Shown piece after piece: positions 37,140 to 64,000 of a stretch of 64,000 bases of DNA (its first letter is position 1; every line of letters begins with the position of its first letter). The DNA is taken from the NCBI GenBank assembly GCA_963703955.1, contig CAVPGK010000010.1, positions 64,001 through 128,000 of the forward strand. Reading direction: 5' to 3'. Source of the stretch: Nitrospirota bacterium (GTDB lineage Bacteria > Nitrospirota > Nitrospiria > Nitrospirales > Nitrospiraceae). The position numbers were made by a program, and so were the translations under genes. Below the pieces are notes generated by a model. The model worked only from the letters and a program-made list of their open reading frames with translations, did not search any database and had not been told where the DNA came from.

Positions 37140-39848
37140 TCACCGGCTGCCACCCTTCTGGAATGCCGCCACCTTGCCCCCTTCCAGGACCCGCTTGGCG
37201 TCGAGGAGCCCGAAGAGTTGGATCGTTTTGGCCACGCACCCGGTCCAGCCGGTCTGATGGCTTGCGCCCAGTCCCGCCCCGTTATCACCGTGAAAGTATT
37301 CATAGAACAGGATGAGATCCCGCCAGTGGGGATCGGATTGGAACTTCTGCGTGCCGCCATACACAGGGCGCTGGCCGCGCTTATCCCGCAGGAAGATCCG
37401 GCTCAGCCGATCTGCGATCTCCTTGGCGACCTCGAAGAGGTTCATCATCTTGCCGGATCCGGTGGGGCATTCAATTTTGAAATTGTCACCATAGTAGAGA
37501 TAGTAATTCAGGAGCGCCCGAATAAGGATGACATTCACCGGCATCCAGACCGGCCCCCGCCAGTTCGAGTTGCCGCCGAACATGCCGGTGTCGGACTCGG
37601 CCGGTAGATAGTTCACCCGGTACTCCTGGCCGCCCACGTTGAAGATATAGGGGTTCCGCTCGTGAAACTTGGAGAGCGCACGGAGCCCGTAGGGGCCCAG
37701 GAATTCATTTTCGTCGAGCATCTTCGAGAGGATCCGGCGGAGCCGCTCCGGATTGATCAGCGCAATGATTCCCCGCTCGTTCACGCCAAAATGCCCCGGG
37801 CCGGTGGGGTGCATGGATTTCATGAGTTCGGGCATCTGGCGCGCGCGCGCAACAAAAGCCGCGACGACCTGCGGAACGAGTTCCCGCTGCCACGGCTCGA
37901 CGACGGTCGTGGCGCACAGCGGCAGCAGCCCCACCATCGAGCGGACCTTGAGCCGCTGGGCACTGCCGTCCGGGAGTCGCAGCAGATCGTAATAGAAGCC
38001 GTCCTCCTCGTCCCACATGCCCTCCGGCCCGGGCCTGTTCATTCCCGCGGCAATATATAAGAAGTGTTCGATAAATTTTGTCACCATATCCCCGTAGGTG
38101 GGGTCGTGGACCACCAGCTCCACCGCAAGTTCCAACATGTTCTGGCTGAACAGGGCCATCCAGGCTGTGCCGTCCGCCTGCTCAAGGTGGCCCCCGGTAG
38201 GCAATGGGGCGCTGCGGTCGAAGATGCCGATGTTGTCGAGGCCGAGGAACCCCCCCTCGAACACGTTCTTGCCGAACCGGTCCTTCCGGTTCACCCACCA
38301 GGTGAAGTTCAGCAAGAGCTTGTTGAAGGCCAGCTTGAGGAAGTTCACATCCGTCTCGCCGCGCACGGCCTGCTCGGTGCGGTGCAGGAAGAGGGTCGCA
38401 AAGGCGTGGACCGGCGGGTTCACGTCGCTGAAGTTCCATTCGTAGGCGGGAACCTGCCCGTTGGGGTGCAGATAGAACCCATGTAGCATCAGGTGCATCT
38501 GCTGCTTCGCGAAGTCCGGGTCGACGATCGAGAGCGGCAGCGTGTGGAAGGCCAGGTCCCAGGCCGCGTACCAGGGGTATTCCCACTTGTCCGGCATCGA
38601 GATGACGTCCTCGTTGACCATGTGGAACCACTCCGAGTTCCGGGAGATACGATAGCCGGTATGGAGGGGGTTGGAGTTGTGCTCCTCCAGCCAACGATTG
38701 CCATCAAAGTAATAGTACTGCTTGGACCAGAGCATGCCGGCCAGGGCCTGGCGCATCACGTTAGCCGCGTCCGGGGAGACGGACGGCGGAGTGACGGCAC
38801 GGTAGAACTCGTCCGCCTCCTTCAAGCGGGCCGCGAAGGTCTCTGCAAACGCCGGCCCGAAGCGGACTGCAGAAGGGGCTTGGCTGGTGAGACGCAGACG
38901 TACGATCATCGATTGGCCGGGCCCCACCATCTGCCGATAGTGCGCCGAGGCCTTCGTTCCCTGGTGCGCAGGATTCACCGCCTCCTGGCGGCCCTGCACC
39001 ACATAGTCATTGATGCCGTCTTTGACGTAGGGGGTGGGGTTCGGGTATTGAGGAAAGAGCCGGGCGTTGTTCGTTTCATTCTCGGTGAACAGCAGCGGCA
39101 CATTGCCTTCGCAGTACAGGTAGTACGTGCCCAGTGTCGAATGCTGCGCTGAGAGTGCACTCGTGCCCGCCGGTCCCTGGCTCTGCTTGAGGATCGGTTT
39201 CTGGGCAGGTCCGGCAATCCATGTTGCCCAGTCGTTGCGGAACCACAGGGTCGGCAACAGGTGCAGCTCGGCCTGCTCCGGGCCCCGATTGACCGCGGTG
39301 ATCTGCACCAGGATGTCGTCCGGGCCATCCTTGGCATATTCCACGAATACGTCGAAATAGCGATTGTCGTTGAAGACGCCGGTATCGAGCAGTTCATACT
39401 CCATCTCGTTCCGGGAACGTCGGCGGTTGGTCTCCACCAGATCGAGGTAGGGGAAGGCCGCCTGCGGGTACTTGTAGAGGTACTTCATATAGGAATGCGT
39501 CGGCGTGCTGTCGAGGTAGAAGTAATACTCTTTGACGTCCTCGCCGTGGTTGGCTTCGCTGTTGGTGAGCCCGAAGAGCCGTTCTTTGAGGATCGCGTCT
39601 TTCCCGTTCCAGAGGGCGAGCGCAAAGCAGAGCCGCTGTTTCTCGTCGCTGATACCCCCGAGACCATCCTCGCCCCAGCGATAGGCCCGCGAACGGGCCT
39701 GATCATGGGTGAAGAAATTCCAGGCGTCCCCGTTCTCGCTGTAATCCTCCCGAACGGTGCCCCATTGCCGCTCGCTCAGGTACGGGCCCCACCGTTTCCA
39801 GTTGGAGCCGTCTTGTACCAACCGTGTATGCTCAGCCGTTTGTGCCAT
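37140..39848 (-). CDS. GH63 / MGH1-like glucosidase
   Basis: 902 aa; WGPYLSERQWGTVREDYS, MPDKWEYPWYAAWD and EYFHGDNGAGLGASHQTGWT motifs. Confidence 0.93.
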   Translation of the reverse strand: MAQTAEHTRLVQDGSNWKRWGPYLSERQWGTVREDYSENGDAWNFFTHDQARSRAYRWGEDGLGGISDEKQRLCFALALWNGKDAILKERLFGLTNSEANHGEDVKEYYFYLDSTPTHSYMKYLYKYPQAAFPYLDLVETNRRRSRNEMEYELLDTGVFNDNRYFDVFVEYAKDGPDDILVQITAVNRGPEQAELHLLPTLWFRNDWATWIAGPAQKPILKQSQGPAGTSALSAQHSTLGTYYLYCEGNVPLLFTENETNNARLFPQYPNPTPYVKDGINDYVVQGRQEAVNPAHQGTKASAHYRQMVGPGQSMIVRLRLTSQAPSAVRFGPAFAETFAARLKEADEFYRAVTPPSVSPDAANVMRQALAGMLWSKQYYYFDGNRWLEEHNSNPLHTGYRISRNSEWFHMVNEDVISMPDKWEYPWYAAWDLAFHTLPLSIVDPDFAKQQMHLMLHGFYLHPNGQVPAYEWNFSDVNPPVHAFATLFLHRTEQAVRGETDVNFLKLAFNKLLLNFTWWVNRKDRFGKNVFEGGFLGLDNIGIFDRSAPLPTGGHLEQADGTAWMALFSQNMLELAVELVVHDPTYGDMVTKFIEHFLYIAAGMNRPGPEGMWDEEDGFYYDLLRLPDGSAQRLKVRSMVGLLPLCATTVVEPWQRELVPQVVAAFVARARQMPELMKSMHPTGPGHFGVNERGIIALINPERLRRILSKMLDENEFLGPYGLRALSKFHERNPYIFNVGGQEYRVNYLPAESDTGMFGGNSNWRGPVWMPVNVILIRALLNYYLYYGDNFKIECPTGSGKMMNLFEVAKEIADRLSRIFLRDKRGQRPVYGGTQKFQSDPHWRDLILFYEYFHGDNGAGLGASHQTGWTGCVAKTIQLFGLLDAKRVLEGGKVAAFQKGGSR

Positions 39849-50984: not shown

Positions 50985-51668
50985 ATGGGGCCACCCTCTG
51001 TGACGTTCCTGTTCGATGTGGACAATACCTTGCTCGATAACGATCGAGTCGCGGCCGATCTCAAGCGGCATTTAGAACGCGAGGTCGGTCACGAGCGACA
51101 AGAACGCTATTGGGCGATCTTCGAAGAGTTGCGGACCGAACTCGGCTACGTCGATTACCTGGGGACGCTCCAGCGCTATCGGGTCGAGTGTCCGCGCGAC
51201 TCGCATCTGCTGACAGTCTCCCGATTCCTGGTGAACTATCCGTTCGCCAATCGCCTGTTCCCCAACTCGCTCGATGTGATCGAATACTGCAAACAGTGGG
51301 GTCCGGCGGTCGTTCTGTCGGACGGCGACGTTGTCTTTCAGCCGCGCAAGATTGAGCGCTCAGGATTGTTCGATGCCGTCGACGGTAACGTGCTCATTTA
51401 CATTCACAAGGAGCATGAACTGGACGACGTGGAGCGACGGTATCCCGCCCGACACTATGTCCTGGTAGATGACAAGCTGCGCATCCTGGCCGCGGTGAAG
51501 AAAGTGTGGGGCTCTCGGGTGACGACCGTCTTTCCCCGCCAGGGGCACTATGCTCGAGATCCGCAGGCGCTGGCAATGTACCCCGCGGCGGACGTGACCA
51601 TCGAGCGCATCGGTGATCTAATGGGCGTTGACCTGCCGAGATTGCTGCCCACGGCAGGAATGCCGTGA
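50985..51668 (+). CDS. HAD-like hydrolase
   Basis: Motif I FDVDNTL, LSDGD, HK and VDDK. Confidence 0.87.
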   Translation: MGPPSVTFLFDVDNTLLDNDRVAADLKRHLEREVGHERQERYWAIFEELRTELGYVDYLGTLQRYRVECPRDSHLLTVSRFLVNYPFANRLFPNSLDVIEYCKQWGPAVVLSDGDVVFQPRKIERSGLFDAVDGNVLIYIHKEHELDDVERRYPARHYVLVDDKLRILAAVKKVWGSRVTTVFPRQGHYARDPQALAMYPAADVTIERIGDLMGVDLPRLLPTAGMP

Positions 51669-51741
51669 CATTTCATCTCGCCGCCGTTGTACCTTCGATC
51701 GCTTGCTAGCGATCTCAATTTGGACCACTGTTGGAATTTCC

Positions 51742-52176
51742 TCGAAGGCAAGAAGAAGCAGGAACGTGGCTTTAAGGTCTTCAAGCTGGCTGAGTCGAAC
51801 TTCACACCCTGGGATACCGAAGCGGCCACGGAGGCCGAGTCGCTGGCCAAGCAGCTCGAACTGCACATCCGCCACGCGCGCGATGGCCGTACCGAGCAGG
51901 ATCCTCTTTGAGCTTCTGCTCAAAAGCGGGTTTCCGCTCACCATGCCGGTGGAGACGCTTCAGCTTGCCGGCAAGACCGTGCACGGTGTGGCAAACGGAG
52001 CACTGTTCATCTGCCTGGAGCGTGAACTGACCCTCGAACTGATCCGCGCCATGGCCGACAAGAAGCCCGAGCGCGTGGTCTGCCTCGACGAAGGCTTTGC
52101 CGGAAACGACCAGCTCAAGGCGAACGCCGTGCAGATCTTCAAGACCAAGGGCGTCACCAGCTTCAAGACGGTGTGA
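51742..52176 (+). pseudogene. mod: Type III R-M methyltransferase (Mod), C-terminal remnant
   Basis: GFKVFKLAESNF...ILFELLLKSGFPLT...VVCLDEGFAGNDQLKANAVQIFK; catalytic DPPY and FxGxG motifs absent. Confidence 0.85.
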
Positions 52177-52181
52177 GGCCG

Positions 52182-52442
52182 ATGCCCACGATCAGCACAT
52201 TCTTCGGGATCGTGATTCAGATGTTCTGGCGGGAGCACGGGCCGCCGCATTTCCACGCGATCTACGGCGAGCATGAGGTCGTGATCGACATTCGGGAACT
52301 GCGCGTGACGCGTGGGTCCCTTCCACGTCGGGCACTGGCTCTCGTGCTAGAATGGGGCGCAGAGTACCGCGAAGAGTTACTGGAGGACTGGGATCTATGC
52401 AGCCAATTAAAACCACCCAAGCCAATCCCGCCCCTGGAGTAG
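52182..52442 (+). CDS. DUF4160 protein (putative HicA-like toxin)
   Basis: MPTISTFFGIVIQMFWREHGPPHFHAIYGE...GSLPRRAL..VLEW...PIPPLE. Confidence 0.88.
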   Translation: MPTISTFFGIVIQMFWREHGPPHFHAIYGEHEVVIDIRELRVTRGSLPRRALALVLEWGAEYREELLEDWDLCSQLKPPKPIPPLE

Positions 52443-52735
52443 TGCCGGCGCCTCAGCCATCCGTGGCCTGGCGGGTCATGGCCGTCGAGCCGCATCCTGA
52501 CATGCGGCTTCGCGTGCGGTTCATCGACGGAACGTCCGGAGACGTGATGCTCCGCACCTTCCTTACCAGCCCACGGGTTGACGGCACGATCTTCGAGCCG
52601 TTACGAGACCCTGAGGTCTTCCGACAGGTCCGGGTCGAGATGGGCGCTATTGCCTGGCCGAACGGTGCGGACCTTGCTCCGGATGCCATGTACGACGCCA
52701 TTCGGACCCACGGACATTGGGTGGTCGAGGAGTGA
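52442..52735 (+). CDS. DUF2442 protein (putative antitoxin)
   Basis: LRVRFIDGTSG...IFEPLRDPEVFRQV...IAWPNGADLAPDAMY; GTG start overlaps the upstream TAG. Confidence 0.85.
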   Translation: MPAPQPSVAWRVMAVEPHPDMRLRVRFIDGTSGDVMLRTFLTSPRVDGTIFEPLRDPEVFRQVRVEMGAIAWPNGADLAPDAMYDAIRTHGHWVVEE

Positions 52736-53609
52736 AACTCCAGTTCGATCCCAACCAGTCCTTCCAGCTCGACGCGGTGGCTGCTGTCACAGACCTCTCT
52801 GGGATCGGATCAAGCCGAAGACCACCTACCGCGTGGAGTTCGAGACCGACACGCTCGTGGTGCGCGCGGTGGACGCCATCAAGCGCATGGAGAAGATCGA
52901 AGCGCCGAAGATCCACGTCGCCGCAGGGCAAGTCCAGGTGGCAAAGGGTGGGGTGATCACGACTGCCATGAGCGTCGCTGAGGAGCAGCCTGTCTACCTC
53001 GTGCGCGCGCTACCGGATATCCTCGCCTACCTCCAGAACGAGACTGAGCTGACCCGCTCGACGCTTGTCCGCATCCTCAAGGAGTCCGGGCGCCTTGCGG
53101 ACGTGTTCCTGAACCCGCAGCGCTTCCTCGACCAGGTGGCGGCGATCCTCAAGCATGAACTGCATCGCTTGCTCGTGGACGGCATCAAGTACGAGCGGCT
53201 GCCCGGCACCGGTGCGGACACCGAGTGGGAGATGCTGCTCTTCAAGAACGAAGAACTCGTCAACTACCTGGACGCATTGCAGGTGAATAAATCGGTTTAC
53301 GAATATGTAGTCTACGAGTCGGAGGTAGAACGCGCGTTCGCAAAGAAGCTTGATGAGCGCGAGGACATCAAGCTCTTCGTGAAGCTTCCCGCTTGGTTCA
53401 AAGTGGATACCCCGGTGGGCGAGTGTAACGCCGACTGGGCCATCGTCAAGCACGACGGCCAAACGCTCTATCTCGTGCGCGAGACGAAGGGGACACGGGA
53501 CTTCCTCAAGCTGCGGACCACCGAGGCAGACAAGGTGCGCTGTGGCCAACGGCACTTCGAAACGCTCGGCGTGCCCTTCGCCGTCGCTGTGTCTGCCGAC
53601 GAAGTCTAA
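52732..53609 (+). pseudogene. res: Type III restriction subunit (Res) with the helicase core deleted
   Basis: MKLQFDPNQSFQLDAVAAVTDL joins at about 52797 to LWDRIKPKTTYRVEF...ESEVERAF...KLPAWFKVDTPVG..NADWAI..VRETKG (endonuclease region); no DEAD-box motifs. Confidence 0.85.
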
Positions 53610-54703: not shown

Positions 54704-56149
54704 TCATTGAGGCGAAACCGCGTTGTACTCTGTCAATTCATAAGCCGACTGCGAGATCAACGGAGTTTTGGCAGCCTCCGTCTCCAAGTCCCGTAGAAGC
54801 CGTTGAAACTCCTTGTCGTTCCGGATGAGACGGGACGCGGCCAGGAGCAGGTCGTCGAGTTGATGATCGGTCAGCGCCAGATTCGTGGGAATTTTCATGA
54901 CGCGCGCCTGCTCCTCCGGATCTTCCAACTCCGACAAACTGACATTGATGAAGTAAATGTCGGCATCGGGCGTGAAGACACTCGGACCGGTCTGTGCTCG
55001 CTGGCGGAGTTGTGCCCGCCATAGTTTGACGGCCTGACCCATCAGTTCGAAGGTGTCGTCGGAGTACCGATTGATCGGGATGTCGATCAAGGCGTTCAAC
55101 ACCCGCGTGAGGCTGGGAAGTTCATCCAGTTTGTACTGGTTCACATCCGGATGGGTCTCCGCGCTCACCATCAGGTAGACGAGTTTCCGGATTGTTTTCA
55201 CCCCGAGCACCTGGAACGAGGCTTCGACGTCCTCAACGAGTGCGGCTAGCTCTAACACACTGCGCATGCCGATGTTGTCAGCCAACGCGCCGTCCAACAG
55301 ATGGATGTACGGGCGCTTCTCGGCATCGAGATACGACCGCAGCTCGGTCGCGCGCCTTCGGCCCCACGAGGTCCGGCTCTCCGCGCTAATGTACCGCGGC
55401 GGGTCAAATCCGCACTGCCCGGCGTAGTTCTTCAACGAAAGGGGACTGAGGATCAAGGGGAGTGCGCTCGATGCGGCGGTCGCAACCGACAGCGGCAGTT
55501 TGCTGAGATCGGAACAAATCAGGTCGAACTGTCGCTGGTTGAATTCGAACCGCGAGACGGTTGCCATGTCGGAGGCATGAAGGAAGATGATCGGCCGCTG
55601 ATCACTTGAGACGAGGTCATTGAACGTGTGCCGGTCGAACAGCGCTTCGTCCAGCAATTCGGAAAGGATGTGGGCACGGCCGAAATAGGGGGACAAGAGC
55701 CGTAGCCAATTTTTGGGAGACCGCAAGATCCGCGCGCGAAGTTCGCTCTCCCAATCTTTCCGAAGAAAGCGATATTCGAAGTCATGAAAAATGCGGTCGT
55801 GATAGAGCGCATAATACGCCGCCGTGAAGCTGCCGCCCGATAAGGCATTGATGATATTGATTTCGTCGACCAGTCGCTTCCGATGGCCTTCCCACACGAT
55901 CGGTGTCCGGGCCAGTTCCCGCAACACGCCGTAGGAGAGCGCTGACGCCCGCGCGCCGCCACCGGAGAAAGAGGCCACAATAAAGAAACTGTCCGTGCTG
56001 CCGGCCACGGACGGAGGGAGGTTGGCGTAACGATACCCGTAGGCAGGATTCCACCGAGGAAGCGGAGCGTTCATGGTGGGGCGCACATACTCGCAGCCGA
56101 GCGTCAGGCTCAGCAGAGCGATCAATAGCCATACGCCTGCCTGCTTCAT
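54704..56149 (-). CDS. Patatin-like phospholipase lipoprotein, paralog 1
   Basis: Lipobox LTLGC; SGGGARA, ALSGGS nucleophile and DGALADN. Confidence 0.88.
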   Translation of the reverse strand: MKQAGVWLLIALLSLTLGCEYVRPTMNAPLPRWNPAYGYRYANLPPSVAGSTDSFFIVASFSGGGARASALSYGVLRELARTPIVWEGHRKRLVDEINIINALSGGSFTAAYYALYHDRIFHDFEYRFLRKDWESELRARILRSPKNWLRLLSPYFGRAHILSELLDEALFDRHTFNDLVSSDQRPIIFLHASDMATVSRFEFNQRQFDLICSDLSKLPLSVATAASSALPLILSPLSLKNYAGQCGFDPPRYISAESRTSWGRRRATELRSYLDAEKRPYIHLLDGALADNIGMRSVLELAALVEDVEASFQVLGVKTIRKLVYLMVSAETHPDVNQYKLDELPSLTRVLNALIDIPINRYSDDTFELMGQAVKLWRAQLRQRAQTGPSVFTPDADIYFINVSLSELEDPEEQARVMKIPTNLALTDHQLDDLLLAASRLIRNDKEFQRLLRDLETEAAKTPLISQSAYELTEYNAVSPQ

Positions 56150-56723
56150 GAGTTGGGGAAGGTTACAAAGCAGAGAGACGGGTGTCAAGGTACCCAAGAA
56201 CTGGCATGATTGACAGGGTATTCTCTTCACTGTGCACTTCAGATGCAACCTTTTGCTTGCCCGTCATTTTGCTACCTCTCCGCTACCAGAACGGGACAAA
56301 CCAGCACGATCAGGGGGGACCATGATGGATCCCTGTCGGGCCGCAAGACACCACAGATCTAAGGACGCGCGATCGATCGCTATGGCTACCTTTGACTCTT
56401 ATCTTTTGGATGGTCGAGTTCGAAGTGTCCGGCAATGCGTCACGATTCGAGGGGGAAGGGCCGGCTATTGTTCCCCGCAACCCAGACGGTACATGAGCTG
56501 GGATGACGCCATCTCTCGTCGCCTCTCACGGTGTCGGGGAGGTCGAAGCCTGTTATAGAACCCTATGAATCAAAAAGCCTGGGTCCGTAGAAGAGTCCAG
56601 CTCCTGCGCCTCGTTGCTCAAAATGTGAAGACTCACTTCGTGATGGGAAACTCGACAAGGACCGTGTCTTCATGCCGGATGGCGATGAGTTTCATCAATG
56701 GTGAGTCGGCGCATCTTCATTTC

Positions 56724-58326: not shown

Positions 58327-59697
58327 ATGAACATTCTTCGTTCCTCGGTCGTTGCACTCATGTTGGCGGCCTTCACCGGGTGCGAGTATGTCCGGCCTAC
58401 CCTCAATGCTCCACTTGAGCGGTGGGATCAACGGTACGGGTACCGGTACACCAATTTCCCTCAAGCTCCTGACGGCAGCACGGACAGCCTTTTTTTCGTG
58501 GCCTCGTTTTCGGGCGGAGGCATGCGCGCCTCGACCCTTGCCTACGGGGCCTTGCAAGAACTCGCCCGCACGTCGATCATGTGGGAAGGACGCCAAGAGC
58601 GCCTGCTCGATGAACTGAGCATCGTCACGGCGCTGTCCGGCGGCAGTTTCACGGCTGCCTACTATGCGCTGTATGGCGATCGGATCTTCCACGACTTTGA
58701 ATACCGTTTTTTGCGGAAAGATTGGGAACACGAGCTCAAGTCTCGGATGTTCTGGTCGCCGTACAACTGGTTCCGTCTCTTATCCCCATATTTCGGTCGC
58801 ACCCACATCCTGTCGGAACTCCTGGATGAAGCCTTGTTTGACGGCCATACCTACGGCGACCTGCTGAGACGTGGTCACCAACCGATGGTGTATATCCACG
58901 CCTCCGACATGGCCATGCTGTCCCGCTTTGAGTTCAACCAGCGTCAGTTCGACATCATCTGTTCGGACCTCAGTCAACTGCCGATCGCCACGGCGACCGC
59001 CGCCTCCAGCGCCCTTCCCTTGCTCCTCAGCCCAATCTCACTGAAGAACTATGCCGGGCGCTGTGGATACCAGCCGCCGCCGTGGTTACAAGAAGCACAC
59101 AAGACCGCGACGGGGCAACAGCGGGCCAATGAGCTCCGGTCCTACTTCGATTCGAAGAAGCGTCCGTATGTCCATCTGTTGGACGGTGGGTTGGCAGACA
59201 ATGTCGGGATGCGGAGCATGGTGGAGACGGTTGCACTCGTGGGAGATGTTGAAACACTGTTTAAGGTCCTCGGGGTCAAGACGGTCCGAAAGCTGGTCTT
59301 CCTGGTGGTGAGGGCGGAAACTCTCCCGGATATGTCCTCCTACCAGTTCAGTAAGATTCCGTCTCTCTCTCGAGCGTTGGATGCGCTCGTTGACATCCCG
59401 ATCAATCGATACTCCATTGACACACTCCACCTCATGCGTCTGGGTGTGGATGGGTGGAGGACTGAACTCCGACACCGAAAGCAGAACACGGAGAGCGTGT
59501 TTGCGCCTGATGCCGACGTGTATTTCATCAATGCCAGTCTGAGTGAATTGGAGGATGCGGACGAGCGCGAGTATCTCATGAAGATTCCGACGACCCTGCA
59601 GCTCAATGATGAACAGATCGATCGGCTGCTCGCCGCTGCGACTCACCTGATCCGCAATGACCCGGATTTTCAGCGTCTGATGCGTGACCTGCAGTAG
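58327..59697 (+). CDS. Patatin-like phospholipase lipoprotein, paralog 2
   Basis: Lipobox FTGC; SGGGMRA, ALSGGS and DGGLADN; colinear with paralog 1. Confidence 0.88.
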   Translation: MNILRSSVVALMLAAFTGCEYVRPTLNAPLERWDQRYGYRYTNFPQAPDGSTDSLFFVASFSGGGMRASTLAYGALQELARTSIMWEGRQERLLDELSIVTALSGGSFTAAYYALYGDRIFHDFEYRFLRKDWEHELKSRMFWSPYNWFRLLSPYFGRTHILSELLDEALFDGHTYGDLLRRGHQPMVYIHASDMAMLSRFEFNQRQFDIICSDLSQLPIATATAASSALPLLLSPISLKNYAGRCGYQPPPWLQEAHKTATGQQRANELRSYFDSKKRPYVHLLDGGLADNVGMRSMVETVALVGDVETLFKVLGVKTVRKLVFLVVRAETLPDMSSYQFSKIPSLSRALDALVDIPINRYSIDTLHLMRLGVDGWRTELRHRKQNTESVFAPDADVYFINASLSELEDADEREYLMKIPTTLQLNDEQIDRLLAAATHLIRNDPDFQRLMRDLQ

Positions 59698-59883: not shown

Positions 59884-60177
59884 TTATGATGCTTTTGCCG
59901 GTCTCTTGTTGAATTCCATTTGGACACGCTCCGCCACAAATAATTTGAGTAGCGTCTGATATGGCACGTCATGTTTATTGGCTAGTATCTTCAGTTGTTC
60001 TAGCAGCGACTTTGGGAGTCGCAGGGAAATAGTTTCAGTTGAGGGTTTTAAACGAGGAAATAGCGTCCGTTTCGCTTTCGAATAATCAACATAGTCCGCC
60101 GAATCGTGTGTGGACCAGAAGTCGGACTCCTGCTTTTCATTCTTGAATTTCGGCATCTTTTTTAGTTTGCTCATCAT
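59884..60177 (-). CDS. BrnA/CopG-type antitoxin
   Basis: PKFKNEKQESDFWSTHDSADY...ISLRLP..LK..A...VPYQTLLK (ribbon-helix-helix). Confidence 0.88.
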   Translation of the reverse strand: MMSKLKKMPKFKNEKQESDFWSTHDSADYVDYSKAKRTLFPRLKPSTETISLRLPKSLLEQLKILANKHDVPYQTLLKLFVAERVQMEFNKRPAKAS

Positions 60178-60457
60178 ACCTGCTCCGTTCCTTCTTGCTC
60201 ATGTCCCTCGCCGAGATAACCCGAATGCGTTGATTCCTCACTGTAAAGACGATGAAAAGGAGGCGGCCCGTGTCAGTCCTTCCTAATACGAAATACCGTC
60301 CCTCTGCGACCGAATGCCGAATATCCTCAGTCACAACCAGAGGTTCATTGAAAAATACCTGCTCACATTCTGGAAGCGTGACGTGATGCTTCTTCCAGTT
60401 CTTTGTCTGGTTTCCTTCGTCCCAATCAAATCCCTCAAGCCTTGCGAGGTCGTTCAT
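60137..60457 (-). CDS. BrnT family toxin
   Basis: FDWDEGNQTKNWKKH, ECEQVF, HS..E.R...LG and IRVISARDM motifs. Confidence 0.9.
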   Translation of the reverse strand: MNDLARLEGFDWDEGNQTKNWKKHHVTLPECEQVFFNEPLVVTEDIRHSVAEGRYFVLGRTDTGRLLFIVFTVRNQRIRVISARDMSKKERSRYDEQTKKDAEIQE

Positions 60458-60788: not shown

Positions 60789-63294
60789 ATGCCTCCGGAA
60801 AACTTCGATGTGTTTCTGAGTTACCACTGGCGTGATCATGCACCTGTAGAAGCGCTTGCACGACGGTTGCGCGAGCAGGACCTCACGGTCTTTCTCGACC
60901 GATGGTATCTCACGCCGGGGCAATCATGGCCGAAGGCATTGGAGGCGACCCTTGCGCAATGTCGAGCGGTGGCCGTCTGCATCGGGCAGGGCGAAATGGG
61001 ACCGTGGCAGCAGCGGGAGCAATATCTCGCGCTGGAGCGGCAGGTGGCGGCTGAGCGCCGTGGTCAACACTTTCCCGTCATTCCCGTTCTGCTCCCCGGC
61101 GCAGAACCGCCGCTGGGGTTTCTCAGTCAAAATACCTGGGTCGATTTGCGCTCGCGTGTCGACGATCCGACCCTGCTCAACACGCTCGTCAGAGCCATAC
61201 ACGGCCAGTCGCCTGGCCCGGATGCGCAAGAAACGATCCGTGAGACGCTCACCAGCATCTGCCCCTACCGGGGCCTCCTTTATTTCCGCGAGGAGGACGC
61301 CCCATTCTTTTTTGGACGTGAAGAGGCCATCACTGAGCTGGTTCGCGCCGTTCAGCAGCACAGCCTTGTAGCGGTTGTCGGGGCCTCGGGCAGCGGGAAG
61401 TCCTCGGTCGTGAGGGCAGGACTCGTGCCGACTTTACGGAGAAGTCGTGAGCGAGTCTGGGAGGTGGCCACCTTCGTGCCGACCGATCGTCCGATCTATT
61501 CGCTCGCAGCAGTGCTCATGCCGTTCCTCGAGCCGGACATGAGCGAGACCGCCCGGTTGATAGAAACGAATAACCTGGTTGATGCCCTGGTGGAAAGGAA
61601 AGTCAAGCTGCGCGATGTCGCTGATCGCCTTCTTGCGAAGCAGCCCGGCACAGACCGGCTGCTCCTCATCGTTGATCAGTGGGAAGAGTTGTTCACGCTC
61701 TGTCAGGACGACGCCGCACGCCGGTGCTTCATCGACAGTGTGCTGGATACCACGGCCACGACGAGGGTGAGCGTGGTGCTCACCCTGCGAGGAGACTTTT
61801 TGGGTCGCGCCATTACCGCCTATCGGCCCCTGTCGGATCGTGTGCAAGGCGCCCAAGTGAACTTAGGGCCGATGAATCGGGAGGAATTGCGCCTTGCCAT
61901 CCAAGAGCCGGCACGCCAAGTGGGGCTGACGTTTGAAGCAGGCCTCATCGATCTGATTGTGGAGCAAGCCGGTGACGAACCCGGCCATTTACCCTTGCTT
62001 GAATTCGTGCTTCGGCAGCTCTGGGAGCAACGGCGAGGAGGGGAACTTCACCATGAAGCTTACAAGGCCATGGGGCAACTGCATGGCGCCGTCGCCCAAA
62101 AAGCCGAGGCTCTGTACGAACGATTGAATACGCAACAACAACGAGCCCTGCATAGGATTTTCATGCGTTTGGTTCGCCCTGGCGAGGGCGAGGCGGATAC
62201 GAGACGACGGGCGACCTTCGCGGATCTCGGCGAAGAGGCGCGACCTCTAGTGAAAACACTCGCCGATGCGCGATTGTTGGTGACTTCCCAGCGTCAAGGC
62301 AGTGCGCAGGAAACGATTGAGGTGTCGCACGAGGCGTTGATCCACCATTGGAAGCGACTCGAAACGTGGGTGGACGCGGACCGCCCATTTCTCGCCTGGC
62401 AACAGGGGCTGAACGTGGCGATGAAAGCGTGGGAAGACCAGCAAGGGGCACTCCGATTTCTTGCTCCGCGGGCGTCCGCTGGACGAAGCGTTGGATTGGC
62501 TCCGGAAAAAGTCCGAGGAACTCTCGCCACGCGAACGAGAGTATCTGGCGGCCAGCAAGAAACGCAAGATCAGAGAGCGCGTTGTCGTCGCTATCGCCGC
62601 CAGCCTCGTCCTTGCGCTGGTTGGTTGGCCGATCGCTTGGTTGTGGAAGGAAGGGGTAACGGTCCAATATGCCTGGTCGGTTCTGCGGGTGAGGTTGCCT
62701 CTGGTTCAGGTCCCCGAACCGGAGATGGTGCCAATTCCCGGTAAGCCGTATGCCATGGGGCGCTACGAAGTCACCTTTGAGGAATACGATGCGTATGCAA
62801 GATTAACCGGGCGACGAGTGCCGACCGATCACGACTGGGGTCGAGAGAAGCGTCCCGTGATCAACGTGTCGTGGGAGGATGGAGTGGCATACGCGAAGTG
62901 GCTGTCACAAGCCACGGGTAAACGTTACCGACTGCCGACAGAAACCGAGTGGGAGTATGCGGCGCGAAGCGGAGGGAAAAACGACATCTGGCCTGGAACC
63001 TCAGACGAGAGTCAATTAAAGGACTACGCGGTGTACAACACAGATCGCACAGAGCCTGTCGGCGGGAGAAAACCCAACGCTCTCGAGCTGTATGACATGA
63101 GCGGGAATGTGTGGGAGTGGGTGCAAGATTGCTACGACAAAGCGTATGAGGACAACTGCCGCCTGCGGGTGATCCGCGGTGGGTCCTGGCTCGGCACTCC
63201 GGAGGACTTGCGTGCCTCGAACCGGAATGGGGCCGACGCTGGCGACCGGGTCGGCGCCATCGGCTTTCGTCTGGCCCAAGACCGTCCGCAATAA
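60789..63294 (+). CDS. DGR target: TIR - STAND (nSTAND1-type) NTPase - TM - FGE-sulfatase/C-type lectin-fold protein (one frameshift near 62448)
   Basis: TIR FDVFLSY..VFLD..WQQRE; CPYRGLLYFREEDAPFFFGRE, Walker A GASGSGKSS, Walker B LIVDQWEE, LPLLEF and SHEALI..W; then LLRGRPLDEA, a TM helix, and FGE motifs YEVTFEEY, RLPTETEWEYAAR, LYDMSGNVWEW and RVIRGGSW...IGFRLA. Confidence 0.9.
63166..63282 (+). other. Putative DGR variable region (VR) and IMH
   Basis: 3' end of the CLec domain, RVIRGGSW-LGT-PEDLRAS-N-R-NGADAGD-R-VGA-IGFRLAQD. Most variable positions are NNC codons (CTC GGC GAC AAC GCC GAC GGC GAC GTC GGC GCC), as expected from AAC template codons. Confidence 0.75.
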
Positions 63295-63375
63295 CCCTGT
63301 GCCCTTTGCCTTTTGGACCCTTTGCCTCTTCTCCGATGCCAGGGGTTATGAATCGGTGAAAAATCTCATGGACGA

Positions 63376-63735
63376 ATGATGGCTTCCACCGTGCCCCAGG
63401 CCGTGCAATCGTGCCATGACCTGCTCCTGTGGCTGATTCCGCAGCTCGACAATTTCCGCGCTCGCGCCGGTTCACGCTGGGTGAACGAATAGAAGCCGGG
63501 GTGCTCGACGTGCTGGAGCTGCTCGTTGAAGCGGCGTATACGCGCACCAAGGAGGCAGCGCTGCGGCGCGCGAATCTGCGGCTGGAGGTGGTGCGCCACC
63601 TGTGGAGACTTGCCCACGAACTGAAGGTCATGGCGACCCGCCAGTACGAGCATGGGGCGAGGTTGATCGACGATCTTGGGCCGGCAGATCGGCGGCTGGC
63701 TCCGCAGCCGGGACACCTCGCAGGCAAGCACATGA
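63376..63735 (+). CDS. avd: DGR accessory variability determinant Avd (four-helix bundle; compensating indels near 63451 and 63679)
   Basis: Not in the ORF track. Reconstructed as MMASTVPQAVQSCHDLLLWLIPQLDxFPRSRRFTLGERIEAGVLDVLELLVEAAYTRTKEAALRRANLRLEVVRHLWRLAHELKVMATRQYEHGARLIDDLGRQIGGWLRS..., with FP..R..LG..I and GRQIGGW signatures. Its TGA overlaps the RT ATG. Confidence 0.88.
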
Positions 63736-64000
63736 AACGGCTCGGCGGTATCTTGGCCACAGCTGGTGAGTTTCGAGAATCTACTCAGCGCGTATCGCAA
63801 GGCGCGGCGGGGCAAAGGCGGCACGTCTGGCGTGGCGGAGTTCGGCCTGGATCTGGAGCGGGAGCTAATCGCACTGCAACGCGAGCTGCAAGAACGGCGA
63901 CTATCGGCCCGGGGATTACCGCCTGTTCACGATCTATGACCGCAAGCCGCGTGTCATCGCGGCGGCGCCGTTTCGCGACCGGGTCGTGCACCACGCGGTG
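63732..64000 (+). CDS. DGR-type reverse transcriptase, 5' part only (extra bases near 63753 and 63895)
   Basis: Not in the ORF track. Reconstructed as [28 protein letters not shown]...[53 protein letters not shown] (N-terminal RT blocks). The YxDD motif lies outside the window. Confidence 0.88.

Follow-up and report, generated by a model that had tools for sequence, protein, structure and literature searches.

At the end of a 64,000-nucleotide stretch of a Nitrospirota bacterium (the window; positions 64,001 to 128,000 of contig CAVPGK010000010.1, assembly GCA_963703955.1), we have identified a diversity-generating retroelement (DGR) that runs on into the rest of the contig. Its four parts were all found on one contig, in the order target gene, avd, reverse transcriptase (RT) and template repeat (TR), and there is hardly any room for doubt that the locus is a DGR. 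The best explanation overall, to which we give a probability of about 0.78, is a chromosomal target-avd-RT-TR DGR whose target is likely a TIR-STAND receptor and whose frameshifts are likely assembly errors. Unprefixed positions are those of the window, which is C10:64001-128000 in the coordinates of its contig (C10) and hence ends at C10:128000.

The original prediction, made from the window alone, placed the TR outside it, downstream of the RT; the TR was located directly 3′ of the RT. As had been proposed, the target 3′ end was compared by BLAST with the genome for a repeat differing at TR adenines; this gave three strong partners, one of which, an AAC-rich repeat, is the TR. Compared with the TR over 117 nt, the variable repeat (VR) of the target, VR1, differs at 20 of 32 A positions and at 9 of 85 non-A positions (Fisher p=4e-8). 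The same bias is seen in VR2 (15/31 A positions, 5/85 non-A) and VR3 (17/32 and 8/85), p ranging from 4e-8 to 1e-6 over the three VRs. The share of mismatches at TR adenines is 69% in VR1, 75% in VR2 and 68% in VR3, at or slightly below the 75% typical of DGRs according to passages of Roux et al. (10.1101/2020.04.01.020958). The 32 adenines of the TR are found in 19 codons and allow about 10^18 protein variants. The locus is laid out as follows.

60789-63294, plus strand: DGR target gene encoding TIR, nSTAND1, a transmembrane (TM) helix and a C-type lectin (CLec) domain, by Pfam and alignment to intact relatives; one +1 frameshift near 62436-62451
63163-63279, plus strand: VR1, variable repeat at the target 3′ end, with adenine-biased mismatches to the TR
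63292-63323, plus strand: pyrimidine tract from the target stop codon, a candidate target-site signal; common after VRs of the clade, absent after the TR
63376-63735, plus strand: avd, 119 aa, with -1 near 63452 and +1 near 63675; by NF033474, PF22296 and orthologs
63732-64000, plus strand: 5′ part of the RT gene, which extends to C10:128823
C10:128792-128802 with 129008-129018: predicted 11-bp duplex
C10:128814-128930: TR, 117 nt, overlapping the RT stop; by BLAST and TR/VR comparison
C10:128925-129114: structured RNA, by covariation
Beyond the window end, after the TR and before VR2: hicB-hicA pair, by HicB/HicA domain matches
C10:130002-130117: orphan VR2 with its own pyrimidine tract
C21:132608-132488, minus strand: remote VR3

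The predicted Avd gene of about 119 aa was recovered as 119 codons and a stop, and the ATGA overlap at 63732-63735, read as translational coupling of avd to the RT, was verified. The middle piece of avd matches NF033474 (DivGenRetAVD) at E 1e-15, its fragmentary state keeping it below the cut-off, which an intact ortholog exceeds; PF22296 is matched as well. Against two intact orthologs 96 of 113-116 aligned residues are identical (about 83-85%), and the avd fragment found no PDB match. The RT has the N-terminal motifs claimed for it, and reading on past the window gives IGNLTSQ at C10:128330 and YVDD at C10:128427, the latter being the YxDD motif expected there. Further support comes from passages of PMC3521204, where (I/V/L)GxxxSQ is a mark of DGR RTs and QGxxxSP of group II intron RTs.

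For comparison, 79 related loci were collected. The RTs nearest to the ortholog query, at 75-83% identity, belong to records labelled Nitrospira, Nitrospiraceae, Nitrospirales or Nitrospirota; after these come mostly Gammaproteobacteria. A DGR-type RT match at E<=1e-60 was found in 27 of 371 genomes of the host family. The two sets overlap and their members, being kin, are not independent.

The target gene and its possible role

A 659-aa open reading frame (ORF; 60765/60789-62744) and the CLec ORF (62461-63294) form a single target gene interrupted by one frameshift, a point absent from the original prediction. Once that shift is allowed, the gene can be aligned over its full length to six intact relatives (877-925 aa, 54-71% identity). 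It encodes a TIR domain at 60810-61157 (Pfam TIR_2, E 2e-22), an nSTAND1 NTPase at 61263-62444 (Pfam nSTAND1, E 1e-122), a transmembrane helix predicted from hydropathy at 62581-62646 and an FGE-type CLec domain at 62743-63276 (PF03781 FGE-sulfatase, E 8e-42). The last of these had been recognized in the original prediction as an FGE/CLec domain with a VR-like end, and it does run into the VR and then a stop at 63292-63294. The predicted CLec model (pLDDT 86, from a 27-sequence alignment) matched PvdO (TM score 0.83) and TvpA (0.78) by Foldseek, and TvpA (2y3c) was also among the top PDB matches by sequence (E 7e-20). The genome holds 21 FGE-domain matches in total.

By Pfam, the targets of 17 hand-picked relatives comprised TIR-nSTAND1-CLec in 7/17 and DUF4062-nSTAND1-CLec in 3/17; the other seven had nSTAND1 alone, TIR alone, caspase, AAA_35 or metallophosphoesterase-NACHT. 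A hydrophobic helix lies about 270-290 aa from the C-terminus of the relatives' targets. Toxin-antitoxin pairs flank the DGR on both sides, BrnT/CopG at 59884-60457 and HicB/HicA after the TR.

Judged from its domains, the target could at about even odds be an immune receptor, likely a membrane-anchored one. It is also possible, though clearly less probable, that the DGR is as described and diversifies an adhesion or environmental signalling receptor rather than a defence sensor. CLec VRs are general binding surfaces, PADLOC yields only short TIR-level or P-loop matches, and CLec-STAND proteins are without experimental characterisation according to passages of PMC10907252. What speaks for defence is the combination of TIR with nSTAND1, the toxin-antitoxin pairs around both loci of this genome, and the N-terminal domains of the relatives, which include TIR, caspase and metallophosphoesterase. 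The TIR domain of the target also carries what we take to be a WxxxE motif.

RT and Avd are predicted to copy TR RNA with adenine errors into the CLec tip of the target. By analogy with the Bordetella phage BPP-1 DGR, a transcript over the RT 3′ end, the TR and the spacer would fold on RT-Avd, cDNA synthesis would be primed in cis at the TR 3′ end and halt on reaching the upstream duplex, and its mutated product would replace the VR. The domain order suggests that the CLec would lie outside the membrane and TIR and nSTAND1 inside it; ligand binding may then lead to STAND oligomerisation and in turn to TIR activity (NAD+ cleavage or signalling). Perhaps the outcome would be abortive defence in Nitrospira microcolonies.

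Possible turnover of the template repeat

All nine non-A differences between VR1 and the TR are synonymous and are spread along the repeat, and thus they are not random errors. Such differences are rare among the 51 relatives with a scoreable VR in cis (of the 79 loci), the number being at most 2 in 40/51, with a median of 0, and at least 8 in 4/51; VR1, with 8-9, is therefore unusual. Up to 11 were reported in one target in passages of Wu et al. 2018 (PMC5758913). Because of these nine differences, recent rewriting of VR1 by this TR is improbable, and we infer from the repeats that VR1 was last written by another or an older TR and is hence currently a "frozen" variant.

VR2 is an orphan 1.1 kb downstream of the TR and 3′ of the hicB-hicA pair, with only a CLec C-terminal remnant left. 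VR3 ends a broken TIR-CLec gene on contig C21, followed by about 30 nt of avd, and so the C21 locus appears to be a second, decayed cassette. VR2 and VR3 have five differences from the TR in common and are closer to other Nitrospira TRs (2 and 5 mismatches versus 5 and 8), a gain that is partly inflated since the adenines of those TRs match anything. On the simplest reading of the repeats, the avd-RT-TR module would turn over while the targets last longer. VR1 may also stem from a further TR in the part of the genome that is missing, the assembly being 82% complete with about 18% of the genome absent; in it a single RT match was found and, except for the avd stub on C21, no additional RT, avd or spacer RNA.

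It could be argued that the locus is a consensus of two strains, in which mixed haplotypes yield both the indels and the synonymous VR/TR mismatches, so that each strain could hold an active matched pair. Every non-A difference is synonymous, as between strains, and pieces from sequencing run X1 are 98.7-99.5% identical on the 5′ part of the target and about 85-93% on the RT and spacer (weak evidence at a depth of 2-4). The X1 RT pieces may, however, stem from other organisms. Moreover, the differences shared by VR2 and VR3, and their better fit to other Nitrospira TRs, point to TR turnover across two contigs rather than one mixed spot, which makes a strain mixture improbable.

The decayed C21 locus (L002:6400-7700, minus strand) also has the pyrimidine tract, and lies between toxin-antitoxin-like pairs near an integrase-core (insertion sequence-type) gene. 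In a related genome (G023), the TR (L004:2990-3250) is chimeric, its 5′ half being TR and its 3′ half VR with its stop; next to another STAND-CLec target, at a distance of 1.5 Mb, are the spacer RNA and a 5′ piece of avd. The chimera suggests TR-VR recombination.

Frameshifts: assembly errors or decay

The cassette carries 10-12 indels, two in avd, 7-9 insertion events in the RT (nine extra bases in all) and one in the target. Breaks in avd and the RT had been noted in the original prediction and were found at the avd positions listed above and, for the RT inside the window, as +1 near 63753 and 63893. The further claim that the ORF track shows only antisense shadows here stood in part: antisense ORFs are present, but the short or 3′-open sense ORFs 63429-63998 and 63766-63939 carry pieces of avd and RT. 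Concealment of the cassette elements is likely due mainly to assembly errors.

From sequence comparison, the indels themselves are probably assembly errors. There is no in-frame stop codon in avd or the RT; at 218 conserved columns the RT has 3 private changes, versus 2-12 in 16 relatives; pairwise dN/dS is 0.06-0.13, similar to intact pairs; and in 69 of the 79 relatives the aligned part of the RT has no frameshift. Three of the extra RT bases are missing from related contigs of X2 and X4, two of the sequencing runs (the four runs compared, all as contigs, share only 0.05-0.12 of words). In a control set of 57 orthologs (69.6 kb, queries from G023), this assembly shows 19 shifts in 14 genes. 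One control gene (C20 near 37400-39200), which we take to be RpoD, carries five frameshifts, four of them +1; real gene death is excluded there, and the assembly thus has many indel errors. A self-trained frameshift model called 117 (+1) and 65 (-1) events genome-wide, counts that are lower bounds, only 3 of the cassette events having been caught.

Nonetheless, several observations weigh against this attribution. Per kb, avd and RT hold 6-8 indels, which is roughly 25-fold the control mean (0.27) and more than in the RpoD cluster (2.8). The control shifts are balanced (10 insertions, 9 deletions) rather than insertion-biased, and some of them, at 53-66% identity, may be alignment artefacts. 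Real decay of this DGR occurs in kin, with the TR/VR chimera in G023 and an insertion sequence plus another insertion in G007. The remnant state of VR2 and the C21 locus and the unusual non-A count of VR1 fall on the same side.

These points would suit a real but dead DGR, with the indels as true mutations and a fixed receptor variant kept while avd and RT decay. VR1 is stale relative to the TR, VR2 is an orphan, C21 retains only a broken target and an avd stub, and 27 family genomes have a tract-marked target without an RT match; true decay in kin and a local indel density far over the genome mean would agree as well. Yet about ten indels have left no stop codon and no excess of amino-acid changes, and they are nearly all insertions, whereas gene decay in bacteria is deletion-biased. 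The target gene and rpoD are frameshifted too. Death of the element is thus an unlikely account, and assembly error remains the preferred one. Other "split gene" findings in this genome call for caution.

Similar observations were made elsewhere. The related DGR in G007:C7 (L006) has a transposase inside the target, presumably IS30-like, and a small inserted ORF between avd and RT, presumably of GIY-YIG-like look. The related loci L114, L064 and L065 have frameshifts without stops, 14 of them, mostly insertions, in the RT of L114. At C10:134700-137800 two metabolic-gene-like stretches, which we assume to be glycerol kinase-like and glycerol-3-phosphate dehydrogenase-like, are split into several ORFs and are likely another error cluster.

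Affiliation of the reverse transcriptase

The best PDB match of the 116-aa RT piece in the window was 8ub7 (E 8e-19, versus 2e-14 for GsI-IIC), and for a near-full ortholog the gap widens (E 4e-41 versus 1e-17). We take 8ub7, whose length of 328 aa equals that of annotated bRT, to be the BPP-1 bRT. A tree of 47 rows was built from this RT, its frameshifts read across as X, from alternate relatives (L114 excepted) whose alignment covered 300 residues or more, and from references comprising five DGR-type, five group II intron and three retron-like RTs (one above the NF038233 cut-off). As anticipated, the RT fell among the DGR RTs: its 8-row Nitrospirota clade (SH-aLRT 99) is nested in a 39-row DGR clade (97), outside the 5-row group II intron clade and apart from the three retron-like RTs. 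Its neighbours are RTs of Chromatiaceae, Thiotrichaceae, Methylococcaceae and Competibacteraceae.

Some caveats attach to this placement, as the tree is a quick one with long-branch warnings, the top NCBIfam match of the RT is group_II_RT_mat (TIGR04416), far below its cut-off (141 versus 300 bits), and no DGR-RT model was among the NCBIfam matches. That this match heads the list is what favours a group II intron maturase or retron RT beside an unrelated FGE gene, a reading refuted by the TR/VR pattern and the tree, with the sub-threshold score, the SQ motif and the coupled avd also against it.

Structured RNA around the template repeat

About 190 nt 3′ of the TR (C10:128925-129114) are conserved among relatives. 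In 32 hand-chosen loci, 23 of 30 predicted pairs show compensatory change and 95.5% of cells pair, a value reached by none of 500 shuffles, slid controls giving 36-45%; the structure was derived from the same 32-locus alignment that was used for scoring. Rfam gave no match to this RNA up to E 5. The 11-bp duplex pairs the last RT codons with the spacer, own pairs reaching -20.4 kcal/mol versus -16.2 kcal/mol for cross pairs over 42 loci, although the own partner is the best one in only 12 of them. It is followed by a stem-loop and by invariant adenines. This arrangement fits the cPRT-Stop element, present in 207 of 278 Avd-bearing DGRs according to passages of 10.1101/2023.10.23.563531, and would thus be expected anatomy; by position only, the RNA elements fit those of BPP-1. 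A priming adenine sought by analogy to Sp A56 was rejected, the invariant CCATG being out of register with helix 1.

A pyrimidine tract after the variable repeats

At most VR ends of the clade, the target stop codon opens a 31-nt tract of C/T runs, which is absent after the TR; its consensus is TRACCCTTTGYCCTTTGTCCTTTTACCCTTT. It carries 1.04 bits of information over positions 1-31, against 0.09 beyond them (58 ends), and it occurs in Nitrospirota and other phyla. A matrix trained without this genome (54 of 66 relatives' VR ends were kept) ranked its three VR ends 1, 2 and 4 genome-wide, the VR1 copy being second; when trained on other phyla only, the ranks were 1, 3 and 8 of 89 sites. The tract was seen at none of 14 other scored FGE gene ends in this genome (two more were unscoreable).

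A strict form of the pattern matched in 46 of 371 family genomes and never in controls, while missing this genome's own copies. All 30 fetched tract loci begin at the stop of a CLec-type gene, 14 of them followed by avd, and 29 end in the VR-type G-x-R-L-x-[QR]-D by eye (20 by strict regular expression), one having lost its VR. Since the pattern was built from these VRs, only its specificity is independently tested. Among the tract-bearing family genomes, 19/46 have an RT match and 27/46 have none, many of these being incomplete. CLec genes with VR-type ends and a tract in the 27 RT-matchless genomes (e.g. L138-L140, L145-L148, L150-L152, L159) are candidate frozen DGR targets; one genome, G361, has seven tract copies and no RT match.

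After the three VRs of this genome no GC-rich hairpin (stem of at least 7 bp) was found. Elsewhere, 4/14 Nitrospirota VR ends and 24/46 others carry a hairpin, so that the two elements can occur together. The tract is absent in BPP-1, where the hairpin is required, and in ANMV-1, and it is weak in Anabaena 90. Passages of Wu et al. (PMC5758913) report inverted repeats or a hairpin after the VR in 34% of DGRs, and note that recognition may need to extend downstream of the initiation of mutagenic homing (IMH) site. Tentatively, and at less than even odds, the tract could serve a large cross-phylum clade of DGRs as their target-site signal, replacing the BPP-1 cruciform where the hairpin is absent and marking all past and present targets, including frozen receptors without an RT. 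Alternatively, it may load Rho or cause pausing, mark a site of RNA processing, or simply have been inherited along with the CLec 3′ end.

Similar CTTTT runs exist elsewhere in this genome (heptamer-like runs at C9:21022-21045, C14:93107, C6:128435 and 129913, C27:20793, C12:123146 and C18:68280), often facing purine/pyrimidine arms near gene starts. The idea that the tract marks four-helix-bundle genes was rejected, other CTTTT-type runs adjoining unrelated genes and a literature search giving nothing. Pairing of the tract with the DGR RNA was also dropped, having produced long irregular duplexes at varying places with no control.

A description of the tract was found neither in literature searches nor in passages of PMC10907252, PMC5758913, PMC3240598, PMC7517822, PMC3521204 and 10.1101/2020.04.01.020958; the Wu et al. 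and bioRxiv supplements may annotate the tract or the RNA.

Relation to known elements and significance

With the BPP-1 DGR (mtd-avd-TR-brt) the locus shares RT, Avd, adenine-specific TR/VR changes and a CLec-fold target, and likewise a duplex upstream of the TR and stem-loops downstream, as described in passages of 10.1101/2023.10.23.563531. It differs in its avd-RT-TR order with the TR overlapping the RT stop, in being chromosomal, in lacking a GC hairpin after its three VRs and in having the tract that BPP-1 lacks; an ortholog of the RT shares only about 33% identity with bRT. Treponema denticola TvpA and other FGE-type CLec1 "category b" targets (passages of PMC5758913) likewise have an FGE-subtype CLec with a C-terminal VR, whereas the N-terminal TIR-nSTAND1-TM part and the host differ.

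A close likeness is also seen to the clade-5 DGRs known from multicellular bacteria, namely those of clade 5D (Dore et al. 2024). In passages of PMC10907252 these have nSTAND1/NACHT-CLec targets, some with TIR, for which an antigen-sensor role was proposed, and the dataset includes a Nitrospira marina DGR. The STAND-CLec DGRs 3 and 6 of Thiohalocapsa PB-PSB1 likewise combine nSTAND1 with a C-terminal FGE/CLec, TIR being one N-terminal effector. The clade also likewise shows two targets per locus and remote or degenerate loci, and some of its CLecs face the periplasm. Two targets per locus are seen here as the nSTAND1-CLec target and the downstream VR remnant. This likeness rests on target architecture, the RT tree having contained no PB-PSB1 RT. 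By comparison with clade 5D, the targets of the Nitrospirota loci scanned commonly join TIR (or DUF4062), nSTAND1, TM and CLec into a single chain, and the tract was not met in the PMC10907252 passages or supplement matches. In addition, passages of Wu et al. 2018 (PMC5758913) list nine DGRs with Toll-like receptor/NTPase domain combinations among TIR/NTPase-FGE targets.

Other neighbours of the DGR include type III restriction-modification-like pieces (51628-53609, with a PF19778 endonuclease domain) interrupted by a DUF4160/DUF2442 pair, and two similar patatin-like genes facing apart (54704-56248, minus strand, and 58336-59697, plus strand), PF01734 being shown for the second.

The kind of DGR described here is already known, TIR/STAND-CLec DGRs and a Nitrospira DGR having been published (passages of PMC10907252 and PMC5758913), and only the tract is a candidate for something new. 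As a conserved element linked to VRs, it makes it possible to test directly how DGRs without a hairpin locate their targets, and can serve as a sequence tag in the search for remote ones. The locus itself is one more example of a DGR-diversified TIR-STAND-CLec receptor, from a DGR clade that recurs (27/371 genomes) in a family of likely nitrifiers.

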